Source: an uncultured Verrucomicrobiota bacterium
GTDB taxonomy: Bacteria > Verrucomicrobiota > Verrucomicrobiia > Limisphaerales > JADLHS01
Reading direction: 5' to 3'
Assembly (NCBI GenBank): GCA_937894935.1
Contig: CALAYC010000215.1
Span: 1,021 to 65,020 of the forward strand
DNA length: 64,000 nucleotides
Shown here: piece after piece, positions 58,670 to 62,463 of the stretch
Layout: each line of letters begins with the position of its first letter
How positions within the stretch are numbered: position 1 is the first letter of the stretch
Notes under the pieces: generated by a model
What the model was told of the DNA's origin: nothing
Seen by the model: only the letters and a program-made list of their open reading frames with translations
The model's database searches: none
Position numbers and translations under genes: made by a program

Positions 58670-60475
58670 ATGACGAACATTCCTTTCATTCCTGAATCCG
58701 CTCCGTTCACCGTGGAACAACGCGCGTGGCTCAACGGTTTTCTCGCCGGTCTGTTCTCGCAAGTGCCCGCCGGTGCGCCGACGCCGCAACTGAACATTGC
58801 TCCGCTCAAGCCGCCGGGTGAACCGTTGCTCGTGCTATACGGATCGCAGACGGGCAGCGCGGAAGGACTCGCGAAAAAGGTAGCGAAGGAAGCGGAAGTG
58901 CGCGGATTTGCGCCGAAGCTCGCGGCGTTGAACGATTTTGAATCAGCAGGATTCGTTACGGCGAAAAAGGCGGTCATCATTTCGAGCACGTGGGGCGATG
59001 GCGAACCGCCGGATAATGCAGTGAATTTCTGGAGTTGGCTCAATGGCGATGCCGCGCCGCGGCTGGAGAATTTGAATTTTGCGGTGCTCGGGTTGGGCGA
59101 CCGGAACTATTCCGATTTCTGCGGTGCATCGAAGAAGTTTGATGTGCGATTGGAAGCGCTCGGGGCGAAACGCGTTGTGCCGCGCGGCGAGTGCGATGTG
59201 GATTACGAAGGTCCGGCGAAGGCGTGGATTGATGGACTGTGGGAAAAGCTGAGTGAAGGGAGGGCGGGCAGTCCCCTGTCTGCCGCCGTTGGCAATGGCG
59301 CGAACGGCGCGCATGGAGTGACGCGTCCTACCAGCGAAGCCAACGGCGCTCCGAAAGTTTACGGCAAATCCAATCCTTTCCCCGCAAAGCTGCTCAAGAA
59401 CGTGCTGTTGAACAAGCCCGGCTCGGGCAAGGAAGTGCGCCACTACGAAATTTCACTGACCGGAAGTGGCTTGACGTACGAAGCAGGCGACGCGCTCGGG
59501 GTTGTGCCGGTGAATTGTCCCGAACTGGTGGACGACATCATCACCGCGCTCAAAGCAAATCCCGATGAGAACGTGAAGTTCGGCGACAAGATTGTGTCGT
59601 TGCGCGAGGCGTTGACGCATCACCTGGACGTAACGAAGCCGTCGCAGGAATTGTTGGCGGTCGTGGCGAAAGCGGCGCCGCAAAGTGAGCTTGCGGCGTT
59701 GCTCGGGCCGGAGAAACGTGACGGGTTGAAAAAGTGGTTATGGGGGCGGCACGTGATTGATTTGCTCGAACTGCTGCCGGCGCCGATGCCGGTGACAGAA
59801 TTTATTCCGCTGCTCAAAAAACTGGTACCGCGGCTCTACTCGATTTCCTCGTCGCCCAGAATGCATCCGGGTGAAGTGCATTTGACGGTTGGCGCGGTGC
59901 GTTACGAGAGTCACGGACGTAAACGCAAAGGTGTGGCTTCGACGTTTCTGGCGGATCGCGTCGGTGAGATGGAATTCGTGAAAGTGTTCGTGCAGCCGTC
60001 GCATGGATTCAAACCGCCGGCCAACGGAGATACGCCGATGATTATGGTCGGGCCGGGCACGGGCATCGCGCCGTTTCGCGCGTTTCTGGAAGAACGTCAG
60101 GCGACCGGTGCGAAGGGTAAAAACTGGTTGTTCTTTGGCGATCAGAAGCGCGACACGGATTTTCTTTACGGGGAATTACTCACTGGCTGGCACAAATCGG
60201 GTTTTCTTACGCGGCTGGATTTGGCGTTTTCGCGGGATCAGGAGCAGAAGATTTATGTGCAGGATCGCATGCGGGAAAACGCAACAGAACTGTGGTCGTG
60301 GCTCGAAGCTGGCGCGCACTTTTATGTCTGCGGCGATGCGAGTCGCATGGCGAAGGACGTGGACGCGGCATTACACGCGATTGTGGAAACTGCCGGTGGC
60401 AAGAGTGCCGAAGAGGCGAAAGCATACGTGGCGAAATTGAAAACGGAGAAACGATATCAACGAGATGTGTATTGA
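58670..60475 (+). CDS. CysJ-like diflavin (flavodoxin-FAD-NADPH) reductase
   Basis: 601 aa. It has an FMN domain ([13 protein letters not shown]...[10 protein letters not shown]), an FNR-like domain ([21 protein letters not shown]) and the terminal YQRDVY. Confidence 0.85.
   Translation: [601 protein letters not shown]
59256..59335. repeat. GC-rich palindrome-containing insert in the FMN-FAD linker of the cysJ-like gene
   Basis: It encodes [28 protein letters not shown]. It contains the hairpin gcgggcag/ctgccgc and the perfect palindrome gacgcgtc. There is only one copy in this window, so repeat status rests on my memory of similar peptides in related genomes. Confidence 0.35.
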
Positions 60476-60657
60476 TCGAATCACGAATTGCCGAAGTGCG
60501 CGAGGCCGACGGGTAACTCGTTTTGGAATGAGTCGGGAAGCGAAGCGCCACGCCGCTTTCAGTCGCATCGAAGGGGAGATTTCATCAATCAAAGCGGTGT
60601 CGCTGCTGCGCTCTGCCACCGCAGTCCATGACGCCTTGAGTAAAACCAGATCGTGTT

Positions 60658-62463
60658 ATGAGTAACGTGACTTTACCCGAACCGATTGCGAATGCGGGGT
60701 TCACTGCGGAACAGAAGGAATATCTGACCGGATTGTTTGCCGGCGTCGCCGCGCGCGGACAACGATTCAGCGATGTTGAGCCGGTGCCCGTCGCATCGCG
60801 GGAGGAGTTGATTCTCGAAGAGCGCATCAAGCGTGAATTGCATCCGCTCGATGCCTATGGACAAATCGTTGAGAACGCTGCCAACAACAAAGCGCCGGAC
60901 AAAGAGGACATTTTCCGCTTCAAATGGCACGGCTTGTTTTTTTTGACGCCGGTGAAAGATGCATTCATGTCGCGGCTGCGAATTCCCGGCGGCGTGTTGA
61001 AGTCGTATCAACTGCGGGAATTGGCGCACATCGCGCAGCAACTCACCAGTGGTTACGTGCAGATCACCACGCGCGCGAATCTGCAAATTCGTCTGATTCA
61101 ACCGAAGGACGCGCCGGAGTTTTTGCAACGCGTGCAAGCGATCGGAATGCACACGCGTGGCAGTGGCGCGGATAACATTCGTAATCTGACGATGAATCCC
61201 ACGGCAGGCATTGATCCGGTGGAGTTGATTGATGTGCAGCCGTTCGTGCAACAGCTCGCGCAGATCATTGTCAATGATCGGTCGTTTTACGATTTGCCGC
61301 GCAAGTTCAATATTGCGTACGACGGAGGCGGGCTGATCGGTTCAGTCGAGGATACGAACGACATCGGGGTGAAAGCGGTTTTAGTAGCTGAGCCTGATAA
61401 GTCTGACCTCTCACCCTCAATCCCTCGCCCCGTTGAGGAGAGAGGGAAGGGCATAGTGGACGCATCGGGAAATCCAATCGAGCCGGGCGTGTATTTCCGC
61501 ATCGCGTTGGGAGGAGCGACAGGACACAAATCTTTCGCGCGAGACCTGGGCGTGATTGTACCGCCGAGTGAGATTAATAAAGTCGTGGTGGCGATTGTGC
61601 GCGTGTTCATCGAGAAAGGTTGCCGCACGAATCGCAAACGGGCGCGTCTTAAACATCTGCTCGAAACGATGTCGCTGGGGGAATATCTCGCGCTCGTGGA
61701 AAAGAAGTTGGGCAAAACACTTCAGCGTGCCCCGTATGATGTTACGTCGATGCGGTGGGCATCGCAGGAACTGGCACATTCGCATGTCGGCGATTTTCCG
61801 CAGAAGCAAAAGGGTTTCAGTTACGTCGGCGCGACGTGTCCGGTTGGTAACATCACGCCGAAGCAGATGTTGCGCGTGGCCGAGTTGGTGGATTTATACG
61901 GCAGTGGCGAAGTGCGACTGACCGTGTGGCAGAATTTCATCATTCCGAATGTGCCGGATGCGTTTGTGCCGACGTTGAAGCGCGCGTTGGACAAAGCAGG
62001 TTTGCCGACGAAGCAGTCGAATCTGGCGAGCGGCGTTATCGCCTGCACCGGAAATTCTTACTGCAAATTCGCGCAAGCGAATACGAAAGGACACGCGCTG
62101 GAGGTGATTAAACAATTGGAGAAGAAGCTGGAGTTGGATCAGCCGGTGAACATTCATGTCACCGGTTGTCCGAATTCGTGTGCGCAACATTACATGGGCG
62201 ATATCGGGTGTCTCGGTACAAAGACCAAAATTAACGGTGAGGGCGTGGATGCGTATCACGTTTTCGTGGGGGGCGGTTTTGGGAAAAATCAGGCGGTGGG
62301 GCGACAGGTTTTCTCCGGCGTAACGGCGGCGCAATTACCCGGAATAATCGAAACCATGTTGCGTGCATACCTGAAGTATCGCGCGAAGAAATCAGAGACG
62401 TTTCAAGAATTCACCAAACGACACGAAGTCGGACGATTGCAGGAAATGTTCGCGGAGTTTTAA
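60658..62463 (+). CDS. nirA: Sirohaem/[4Fe-4S] nitrite (or sulfite) reductase hemoprotein, NirA-type
   Basis: 601 aa with duplicated NIR/SIR ferredoxin-like and sirohaem-binding halves and a Cys cluster (ACTGNSYCKF...TGCPNSCAQ). The nitrate-cluster context favours nitrite. Confidence 0.8.
   Translation: MSNVTLPEPIANAGFTAEQKEYLTGLFAGVAARGQRFSDVEPVPVASREELILEERIKRELHPLDAYGQIVENAANNKAPDKEDIFRFKWHGLFFLTPVKDAFMSRLRIPGGVLKSYQLRELAHIAQQLTSGYVQITTRANLQIRLIQPKDAPEFLQRVQAIGMHTRGSGADNIRNLTMNPTAGIDPVELIDVQPFVQQLAQIIVNDRSFYDLPRKFNIAYDGGGLIGSVEDTNDIGVKAVLVAEPDKSDLSPSIPRPVEERGKGIVDASGNPIEPGVYFRIALGGATGHKSFARDLGVIVPPSEINKVVVAIVRVFIEKGCRTNRKRARLKHLLETMSLGEYLALVEKKLGKTLQRAPYDVTSMRWASQELAHSHVGDFPQKQKGFSYVGATCPVGNITPKQMLRVAELVDLYGSGEVRLTVWQNFIIPNVPDAFVPTLKRALDKAGLPTKQSNLASGVIACTGNSYCKFAQANTKGHALEVIKQLEKKLELDQPVNIHVTGCPNSCAQHYMGDIGCLGTKTKINGEGVDAYHVFVGGGFGKNQAVGRQVFSGVTAAQLPGIIETMLRAYLKYRAKKSETFQEFTKRHEVGRLQEMFAEF
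61400..61455. repeat. Single-hairpin family A-like element in frame in nirA
   Basis: cctctcaccctcaatccctcgccccgttgaggagagagggaagg has the stem ctctc..ctcaa / ttgag..gagag and shares tccctcgccccg with the miaA copy. It encodes LSPSIPRPVEERGKG. Confidence 0.45.

Follow-up and report, generated by a model that had tools for sequence, protein, structure and literature searches.

A homologous N-terminal peptide on a CysJ-like flavoprotein and a NirA-family haemoprotein points to a probable two-component nitrite reductase in Verrucomicrobiota

The nearest described counterpart of the gene pair treated here is the sulfite reductase of Escherichia coli (CysJ/CysI, SiRFP8-SiRHP4), in which adjacent genes encode an NADPH-dependent diflavin reductase and a sirohaem/[4Fe-4S] haemoprotein. 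CysJ needs its first 52 residues to form octamers, and these residues suffice for octamerisation even in a fusion to SUMO; the peptide has been modelled as a helix-turn-helix with Q22, Y39, F40 and Q47 as critical residues (Stroupe laboratory 2026 preprint, bioRxiv 10.64898/2026.04.08.717228). Other arrangements are found in the nitrate reductase NasN, in the ferredoxin-dependent NirA of plants and cyanobacteria and in NirBD. For Bradyrhizobium, the published account (PMC4724949) describes nirA (bll4571) as necessary for growth on nitrate or nitrite as well as for nitrite reductase activity with methyl viologen; it assigns ferredoxin as the electron donor by inference from sequence, and it reports that Flp, the flavoprotein of the nitrate-reductase operon, is dispensable for growth on nitrite. 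Here we analyse a stretch of 64,000 nucleotides (nt) from an uncultured Verrucomicrobiota bacterium (contig CALAYC010000215.1), referred to as the window, in which the gene of a CysJ-like NADPH diflavin reductase is followed by that of a NirA-family haemoprotein. By its best database matches the organism belongs to Verrucomicrobiota, near genomes of the Limisphaerales type. Both proteins begin with a version of the same short peptide, which we call the A tag on the haemoprotein and the B tag on the flavoprotein (Table 1). We propose, with moderate confidence, that the pair constitutes a two-component NAD(P)H-dependent assimilatory nitrite reductase in which the haemoprotein would be tethered to the flavoprotein through the A and B helices.

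The motif that the original prediction had placed at both N-termini is indeed present in the translations of the two genes, at the coordinates claimed. The haemoprotein translation starts MSNVTLPEPIANAGFTAEQKEYLTGLFAGVAARGQRF, its first residues are also given as MSNVTLPEPIANAGFTAEQKEYLTGLFAGVAARG, and the tag region of its N-terminus reads ..ANAGFTAEQKEYLTGLFAGVAARG. The core shared by both tags is F-[TS]-x-[ED]-Q-[RK]-x-[WY]-L-x-G-h-h-x-G; the A version follows the pattern F[ST]xEQKxYLxG[LF]FAG and continues with AARG, and the B version begins IPExAPF[TS]. A six-frame search of the 64 kb window with the expression F[TS].[ED]Q..[WYF]L.G returned exactly two matches, namely the two tags. Hidden Markov models (HMMs) of the tags, based on the peptides of 60 flavoproteins and 71 haemoproteins from related loci, were searched against the 545 open reading frames (ORFs) of the window. 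The next-best match of each model was the other tagged protein (E 6.8e-6 and 1.9e-3), the remaining ORFs gave E values of at least 0.08, and no tag was found by these models on the nitrate reductase NasA of the window or on the neighbouring Fe-S/DmsC protein. Profiles were also compared between diverse peptide sets, which came from Verrucomicrobiota and from metagenomic loci with genes most like those of the alphaproteobacterium Methylocystis; HHalign aligned the A with the B profile in register over 28 columns (probability 98.3%, E 2.4e-14). At the DNA level the tag coding segments are identical at 33 of 57 nt (58%) and use the same codon for only three of the eight identical residues, so that the resemblance has been kept at the protein level. 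Recent gene conversion between the two genes is ruled out by the same 58% identity and the differing codons at shared residues. On these comparisons the A and B tags are homologous, and chance similarity is excluded.

Tag and Pro/Ala tether together occupy amino acids (aa) 4-52 of the flavoprotein. They are followed by a CysJ-type succession of Pfam domains, flavodoxin (aa 55-179), FAD_binding_1 (aa 233-426) and NAD_binding_1 (aa 459-564). The protein narrowly misses the cut-off of the cysJ equivalog TIGR01931 (650.4 against 668.15 bits) and stays below that of the gammaproteobacterial cysJ model NF008197 (516.6 against 838). Its start at ATG 58670 agrees with the N-termini of the orthologues; a mechanical ORF listing begins upstream, at TTG 58601. 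In the haemoprotein, Pfam recognises NIR_SIR and NIR_SIR_ferr, two stretches each. No Pfam stretch covers either N-terminal peptide in the Pfam and NCBIfam searches, and the cysJ profile alone reaches into the flavoprotein copy, aligning from residue 14 onward. A search of PDB sequences with the B-tag profile gave chance matches (best E 0.42, to an interferon-inducible GTPase), and the tag was found in no solved structure.

That the motif is conserved on both partners, as the original prediction supposed, is borne out by alignments of the orthologues of both proteins. We examined 80 verrucomicrobial genome loci (61-88% identity) and 80 metagenome loci with NirA proteins 50-70% identical to that of Methylocystis. 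Every NirA with a complete N-terminus bears the A tag (79/79 verrucomicrobial and 76/76 metagenomic proteins). With the B model and a cut-off of 15 bits, the B tag was detected in 58 of 59 verrucomicrobial reductases that have a complete N-terminus and lie adjacent to NirA, and in all 65 metagenomic reductases adjacent to NirA; those that had failed a stricter earlier regular expression are recognisable B-tag variants. Residues P, A, P, F, Q, R, W and L of the B tag are invariant in 30 diverse reductases, and in 32 diverse NirA-family peptides the Q of the A tag is invariant and its Y, L, G and G are at least 90% conserved. Full-length alignments of 36-48% overall identity show at least 90% conservation of the tag residues F, Q, Y and L, followed by a gap-rich segment whose length varies by tens of residues. 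In such alignments, a conserved tag ahead of a variable linker is the mark of a short functional peptide that is flexibly tethered. Other nitrite and sulfite reductases, including E. coli SiRHP among the solved structures, align with the window NirA only from about residue 62-100 onward and have no counterpart of its first ~50 residues.

The flavoprotein gene lies directly upstream of NirA in all verrucomicrobial loci with enough flanking sequence except one (L055), and the reductase gene directly downstream of NirA in 65 of 67 determinable metagenome loci, frequently with an overlap. Tagged NirA-reductase pairs were also found on replicons of Methylocystis, Methylobacterium and Sulfitobacter, so that the pairing is kept across phyla although the gene order inverts. 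In the window the two genes are separated by 182 nt (60476-60657); in many relatives they abut or overlap. The locus of Bradyrhizobium sp. Tv2a-2 has the order nasT, nasS, formate/nitrite transporter, NirA, reductase; its NirA is A-tagged and overlaps by 4 nt with the B-tagged 'sulfite reductase subunit alpha' that follows. Through this orthologue, bll4571 can be assigned indirectly to the tagged NirA family. The published Bradyrhizobium model names ferredoxin as the donor, and the consulted part of the paper makes no mention of the downstream gene (PMC4724949). Unlike the window flavoprotein, the alphaproteobacterial partner reductases (PRK06214 type; L081 9755-11344, L083 9626-11371, L088 9791-11410) bear the B tag but no flavodoxin domain; its place is taken by a conserved segment rich in Cys, QDCGQCGYNC, which may be a metal or cluster site.

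The distribution of the tag among more distant proteins was surveyed in 150 representatives of a NirA search, clustered at 50% identity and drawn from a library of 1.84 billion cluster representatives; an occurrence of the tag past Verrucomicrobiota and Alphaproteobacteria is seen only in these representatives. The tag is present in 23 of the 150, chiefly in stand-alone proteins; in two of the 23, which are fusions of NasA with NirA, it lies at the junction. Among the same representatives it was not found on ferredoxin-type enzymes, whose N-termini resemble NKFEKLKAEKDGL or plant transit peptides, on CobG-like proteins, or on NirA cores that are fused to NirB-type FAD/NAD modules (P0144, P0174, P0194) or to an FNR-like module. 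A pattern of co-variation between the two tags is present, in that NirA G[L/F]FAG and flavoprotein NG[F/Y/W] combine as 35 L:F, 16 F:Y/W, 5 F:F and 0 L:Y/W, but these counts are confounded by phylogeny. The same holds for the mutual information between the tags, the top pairs of which fall in the variable flanks.

Family scores, the ranking of solved structures, the PRKFN segment of the substrate pocket and the nitrate transport and reduction genes nearby together point to a haemoprotein of the nitrite type and not of the sulfite type. The protein passes the cut-off of the NCBIfam model NF007126, 'NirA family protein' (PRK09567; 714.2 against 523 bits), and does not pass that of NF007125, ferredoxin-nitrite reductase (389.4 against 594). 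The scores for CysI (TIGR02041, 115.8 against 756.6) and Sir (TIGR02042, 100.7 against 731.5) are far under the cut-offs. Among solved structures, the nitrite reductases of tobacco and spinach score highest (245-254 bits), ahead of Mycobacterium tuberculosis SirA (181), maize SiR (82) and E. coli SiRHP (64). The pocket segment reads PRKFN where E. coli CysI has PRKFK; P, R, K and F are invariant and N is nearly invariant in the family alignment, and we take the last position of this segment to tell nitrite from sulfite reductases. The alternative offered by the original prediction, a true sulfite reductase, which would here be an assimilatory enzyme of the CysJI type, is therefore disfavoured and in our view very improbable. 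It can draw on the textbook pairing of CysJ with CysI and on the 650 bits of the flavoprotein, close to the cysJ cut-off of 668. Against these stand the haemoprotein scores (116 for CysI and 101 for Sir, compared with 714 for the NirA family and 389 for ferredoxin-nitrite reductase), the 254 bits of nitrite reductase structures compared with 64 for E. coli SiRHP, PRKFN in place of PRKFK, and an operon shared with a nitrate reductase downstream of nitrate transporter genes. The nitrite phenotype of bll4571 (PMC4724949) argues in the same direction, its family membership being deduced through the Tv2a-2 orthologue. Moreover, in two metagenome loci (L129 1-2458 and L160 2-2996) the tagged pair is preceded, a few kb away, by another CysJ-like gene with a distantly related (26%) sirohaem reductase directly behind it. 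This second pair probably represents a sulfite reductase proper, in which case the two systems can occur side by side.

The original prediction had also named a related segment in the oligomerisation region of E. coli CysJ, in agreement with the CysJ sequence as well as with the octamerisation preprint. Residues 29-42 of CysJ read TPTQLAWVSGYFWG; within them, the glycines of SGYFWG enclose Y39 and F40, and NGFLAG of the B tag and TGLFAG of the A tag correspond to this segment. GxxxG segments of this kind are a pattern linked to close helix-helix packing. Mainly by position and by the pattern W-h-x-G-x-x-x-G, the B tag appears to be the counterpart of CysJ residues 29-52; the window flavoprotein thus resembles CysJ in its N-terminal peptide, in the core of that peptide and in the flexible tether behind it. 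Two features set the window pair apart, in addition to the nitrite-type pocket and family of its haemoprotein. E. coli CysI, in which no tag was found, places an N-terminus of its own on the FNR domain of CysJ, whereas the window haemoprotein bears a homologue of the reductase peptide; and the helix-turn-helix of CysJ lies in one chain, whereas the window partners have one helix each. Both tags are predicted to be helical by a single-sequence model, with the NirA helix at aa 17-31/32. The hydrophobic face of these helices and their GxxxG, both common in membrane helices, would also suit amphipathic membrane or localisation anchors that place the two enzymes together, for instance near the nitrate transporter, and the N-terminus of eukaryotic P450 reductase is a membrane anchor. 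We find this explanation hardly credible: the hydrophobic stretch of ~11 residues is too short for a membrane span, the E. coli counterpart is a soluble octamer (bioRxiv 10.64898/2026.04.08.717228), and in fusion proteins the tags are internal.

Independent support for a docking function comes from the occurrence of the tags on a third enzyme and at fusion junctions. The tag models also match nitrate reductases of related loci. Where flavoprotein, NirA and NasA form an operon that lacks an Fe-S subunit, 14 of 15 NasA proteins end in a tail of ~50 residues with two tandem tags; such a tail is present in none of 28 NasA proteins that are of the window type or have an Fe-S partner. The tailed enzymes are ~30-36% identical to the window NasA, which ends ...CAVRLEKIS and has neither a tag tail nor a C-terminal extension beyond it. 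The first copy in the tails follows F[ST]xEQKNYLLxxLA and the second [IV]PExAPFTxxQRxFIxxLLA; in 14 of 14 tails copy 1 is better matched by the A model and copy 2 by the B model. Proteins annotated as 'bifunctional nitrate reductase/sulfite reductase flavoprotein subunit alpha' have a CysJ-type tag at the junction of NasA and flavodoxin, and in the NasA-flavoprotein fusions of Acetobacter and Komagataeibacter a second tag-like helix precedes it. These fusions are the equivalents of NasN, the NADPH diflavin nitrate reductase known from Mycobacterium smegmatis (Tan et al. 2020, cited in PMC11162112). In the NasA-NirA fusions P0122 (1272 aa) and P0130 (795 aa, partial) the A tag lies at the junction, and no tag was found in P0125 (1253 aa), which combines two cNMP-binding domains and an FNR-like domain with NirA. 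By comparison of these sequences, the tag is present on separate partners, sits at the seam in fusions and is dispensable in proteins to which a reductase module is joined covalently. A further protein, P0257, is possibly a transporter-NirA fusion, going by its hydrophobic N-terminus alone.

These findings suggest the following course of reaction. NADPH would reduce first the FAD and then the FMN of the CysJ-like protein, the flavodoxin domain of which would pass electrons to the [4Fe-4S]-sirohaem centre of NirA, where nitrite is converted to ammonium in a six-electron reduction. At the start of each partner would stand a short, flexibly tethered amphipathic helix, (P/G)F[TS]xEQ[RK]x[WY]LxG-x-x-x-G, and the A and B helices would pack together by way of their aromatic and GxxxG faces. 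In this manner the haemoprotein would be held in the oligomeric core of the flavoprotein, close to the mobile flavodoxin domain and with repeated access to it; in relatives, the same tags could recruit nitrate reductase as well, making the flavoprotein a hub. The parts of this proposal differ in strength. The flavoprotein is very likely the physiological electron donor of the window NirA. That the tags mediate a physical association of the two enzymes is probable, and that they do so by direct packing of tag on tag is tentative, falling just short of what we would call probable. The docking or co-assembly peptide of an NADPH:nitrite reductase pair foreseen by the original prediction is thus supported by conservation, gene linkage, the third enzyme and the fusion junctions; the association itself, its stoichiometry and the NADPH-dependent activity are what we infer from evidence that is comparative and computational throughout.

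The tandem order of A and B in the NasA tails and fusions suggests a bolder variant, which we regard as speculative and rather doubtful. The A and B tags may be the two halves of the CysJ helix-turn-helix, split over two polypeptides, with the hairpin rebuilt in trans to yield a modular nitrate-to-ammonium complex in at least two phyla. One hub would then hold the nitrite reductase by its A tag and, where no Fe-S donor is encoded, the nitrate reductase by its A+B tail. The tags would amount to a portable, genetically encoded docking code that chooses which terminal reductases share a reductase.

Several observations weigh against the proposed tethering. The E. coli CysJ segment matches the B-tag model weakly, with 3.8 bits. 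An artificial chimera of A tag and B tag was predicted as two helices (predicted local distance difference test, pLDDT, 78; predicted template modelling score, pTM, 0.66) by a single-sequence model that supports helicity alone, and the AlphaFold2 model of full-length NirA, calculated from an alignment of 20 sequences, has a mean pLDDT of 55.6 with residues 1-113 below 50, so that it is usable for the helix call at 17-31 alone. The NasA tails hold the N-terminal half of the motif and lack the GxxxG, so a single packing mode may fail to account for all tags. In E. coli, the 80-residue N-terminus of CysI binds the FNR domain of CysJ (2025 cryo-EM, PMC11947256); a similar interface between haemoprotein and FNR domain in the window pair could, by analogy, make the tags secondary. 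From the tight E. coli interface and the GxxxG-less tails, a reading can be built in which the tags dock without binding each other, either onto the body of the flavoprotein (its FNR or flavodoxin domain) or onto a common third protein, their similarity reflecting a shared binding site. The NasN-type fusions would fit such docking too, as they hold the tag pair between domains of a protein that is called monomeric in the title of the paper cited (in PMC11162112). We consider this docking elsewhere unlikely, though the most serious of the alternatives: the homologous E. coli peptide self-assembles alone on SUMO (bioRxiv 10.64898/2026.04.08.717228), the loci examined share no conserved protein that could act as the third partner, and the A and B flavours are complementary on the partners and tandem on tails and fusions.

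Other objections concern the partnership itself. No reductase gene is adjacent to NirA in L055, nor in the metagenome loci L156 and L162 despite room for one. On a Shinella plasmid (L087 1501-8746) a B-tagged CysJ-like gene directly follows a gene for an 1828-aa glutamate-synthase-related protein that shows no tag, a hint that the enzymes served by the tagged flavoprotein may include some that bear no matching tag. Tagged CysJ-like proteins beside such other enzymes, the annotation of these NirA proteins by JGI as ferredoxin-nitrite reductase and the ferredoxin dependence proposed for Bradyrhizobium NirA (PMC4724949) could all be accommodated if each tag merely homo-oligomerised its own enzyme, NirA took its electrons from ferredoxin, the flavoprotein served another acceptor and adjacency meant co-regulation. 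This combination is improbable, since the adjacency, often with overlapping stop and start codons, is kept across phyla despite inverted gene order, the tag is found, among the representatives examined, neither on ferredoxin-type nitrite reductases nor on NirA cores with a fused reductase module, the nitrate-reductase tails are confined to loci in which no Fe-S donor subunit is encoded, and the Bradyrhizobium assignment was deduced from sequence and not from an assay. Tethering of the haemoprotein to the flavoprotein by their tags therefore remains the reading that we prefer.

Seen in this light, the window pair shares features with each of the other known systems. As in NasN, a CysJ-like module would drive an N-oxide reductase of nitrate assimilation, and tags are common to the window pair and the fusion junctions of Acetobacter and Komagataeibacter. 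NasN, however, is a single polypeptide that reduces nitrate, whereas in the window NasA and the flavoprotein are separate ORFs, the reductase adjoins the nitrite reductase, and the nitrate reductase is untagged and has an Fe-S/DmsC partner instead. With ferredoxin-dependent NirA of plants and cyanobacteria (NF007125; PDB 2akj, 3b0g) the haemoprotein has in common the catalytic fold, the cofactors and its closest solved structures, and the pockets of plant nitrite reductases are presumably of the PRK[FW]N type as well. It differs in scoring under the NF007125 cut-off and in its N-terminal tag and linker, which the ferredoxin-type representatives checked do not have. NirBD and NirB likewise perform NAD(P)H-driven assimilatory nitrite reduction with functionally coupled reductase and sirohaem modules. 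In NirB, the FAD/NAD domain is of the pyridine-nucleotide-disulfide type and covalently fused to the sirohaem domain, and fused relatives of this kind are untagged; the donor of the window is of the CysJ/FNR type and presumably bound non-covalently. The genes themselves are not new, as NCBI already names both families. Among open-access papers and preprints, we found no title or abstract describing the pairing of NirA with CysJ, the shared peptide or tagged nitrate reductases. New here are the tandem-tagged nitrate reductases, the tagged fusion junctions and a putative mode of assembly unlike the solved E. coli interface.

The pair stands at the end of a nitrate-assimilation cluster. Two LysR regulators are followed by NrtA-like binding proteins, a permease, two ATPases, a NirB-N-terminal-like flavoprotein, a multihaem cytochrome c, a Tll0287-like protein, a porin, the DmsB/DmsC-like fusion, the NasA-type nitrate reductase, the flavoprotein and the haemoprotein. 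The DmsB/DmsC-like fusion is probably the electron-donor subunit of the type-1 NasA of the window; the two are syntenic in 22 related loci, and their longest ORFs overlap by 85 nt. Since NasA is paired with this fusion, a membrane- or quinol-linked donor is suggested for a nitrate reductase of the cytoplasmic type. The NirB-N-terminal-like flavoprotein (694 aa, 48147-50231) has Pyr_redox_2, Rubredoxin_C and BFD [2Fe-2S] domains and no sirohaem domain, and is followed by the multihaem cytochrome c (477 aa, 50177-51610); in Methylocystis-type loci a related 'FAD-dependent oxidoreductase' of 405 aa lies directly upstream of NirA. The outer-membrane porin of the alginate-export family (52517-54043) is again found beside nitrate genes in Verrucomicrobiota loci, and on an Acetobacter plasmid (L084 1740-3422) a member of this family lies between nirB and the nitrate/nitrite transporter. 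A role as nitrate/nitrite porin is possible. Within NirA, a 34-residue insertion, AEPDKSDLSPSIPRPVEERGKGIVDASGNPIEPG (aa 244-277, window 61387-61488), is missing from more distant family members and probably accounts for the length classes of ~567 and ~596-601 aa among close homologues. The window NasA seems to hold low-complexity insertions too.

Table 1. Features of the nitrate-assimilation locus and of related loci, with coordinates in the window unless loci are named.
Feature	Position	Strand	Basis or remark
Nitrate ABC transporter genes (two NrtA-like, permease, two ATPases) through alginate-export-family porin	42956..54043	+	Pfam
4Fe-4S dicluster protein (DmsB-like) fused to DmsC-like membrane anchor	54317..56044	+	Pfam Fer4_11 and DmsC
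NasA-type molybdopterin nitrate reductase, 'type 1'	55960..58503	+	Pfam, NCBIfam; ends CAVRLEKIS
CysJ-like NADPH diflavin reductase gene	58670..60475	+	601 aa; Pfam domains, TIGR01931 cysJ score
B-type tag of flavoprotein, aa 4-30	58679..58759	+	GxxxG core NGFLAG
Pro/Ala-rich tether between tag and flavodoxin domain	58760..58825	+	Sequence itself; differs between orthologues
NirA-family sirohaem/[4Fe-4S] nitrite reductase haemoprotein	60658..62463	+	601 aa; NF007126, Pfam, solved structures
A-type tag of haemoprotein, LPEPIANAGFTAEQKEYLTGLFAGVAARG, aa 6-34	60673..60759	+	GxxxG core TGLFAG
Variable linker QRFSDVEPVPVASR between tag and conserved core, which starts at EELILEERIKRELHPLDAY	60760..60801	+	Gap-rich; lineages differ by tens of residues
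PRKFN substrate-pocket segment of haemoprotein	61297..61311	+	Asn at position of second Lys in E. coli CysI PRKFK
[4Fe-4S]-sirohaem Cys ligand motifs CTGNSYC and GCPNSCAQ	62044..62187	+	Cysteines invariant in family alignments
NasA downstream of NirA, C-terminal ~50 aa	L009-L016, L022, L025, L026, L028, L032, L054, L072, L074		Loci noted for tails of NasA without Fe-S subunit

If the proposed partnership is true, a large and widespread family, now labelled 'ferredoxin-nitrite reductase' or 'NirA family protein' and with members in Verrucomicrobiota, Bradyrhizobium and methanotrophs, would gain a new physiological donor, and the orphan 'sulfite reductase subunit alpha' genes beside NirA would gain a function. 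The tags are short and self-contained and occur on three unrelated catalytic scaffolds, which makes them candidates for the engineered co-assembly of enzymes, and the natural split and fused variants could be of help with the octamerisation core of E. coli sulfite reductase, the structure of which is still unsolved. The pair would represent a second way of assembling a sirohaem reductase with a flavoprotein, and the reading of nitrate assimilation from genomes and metagenomes would change with it.

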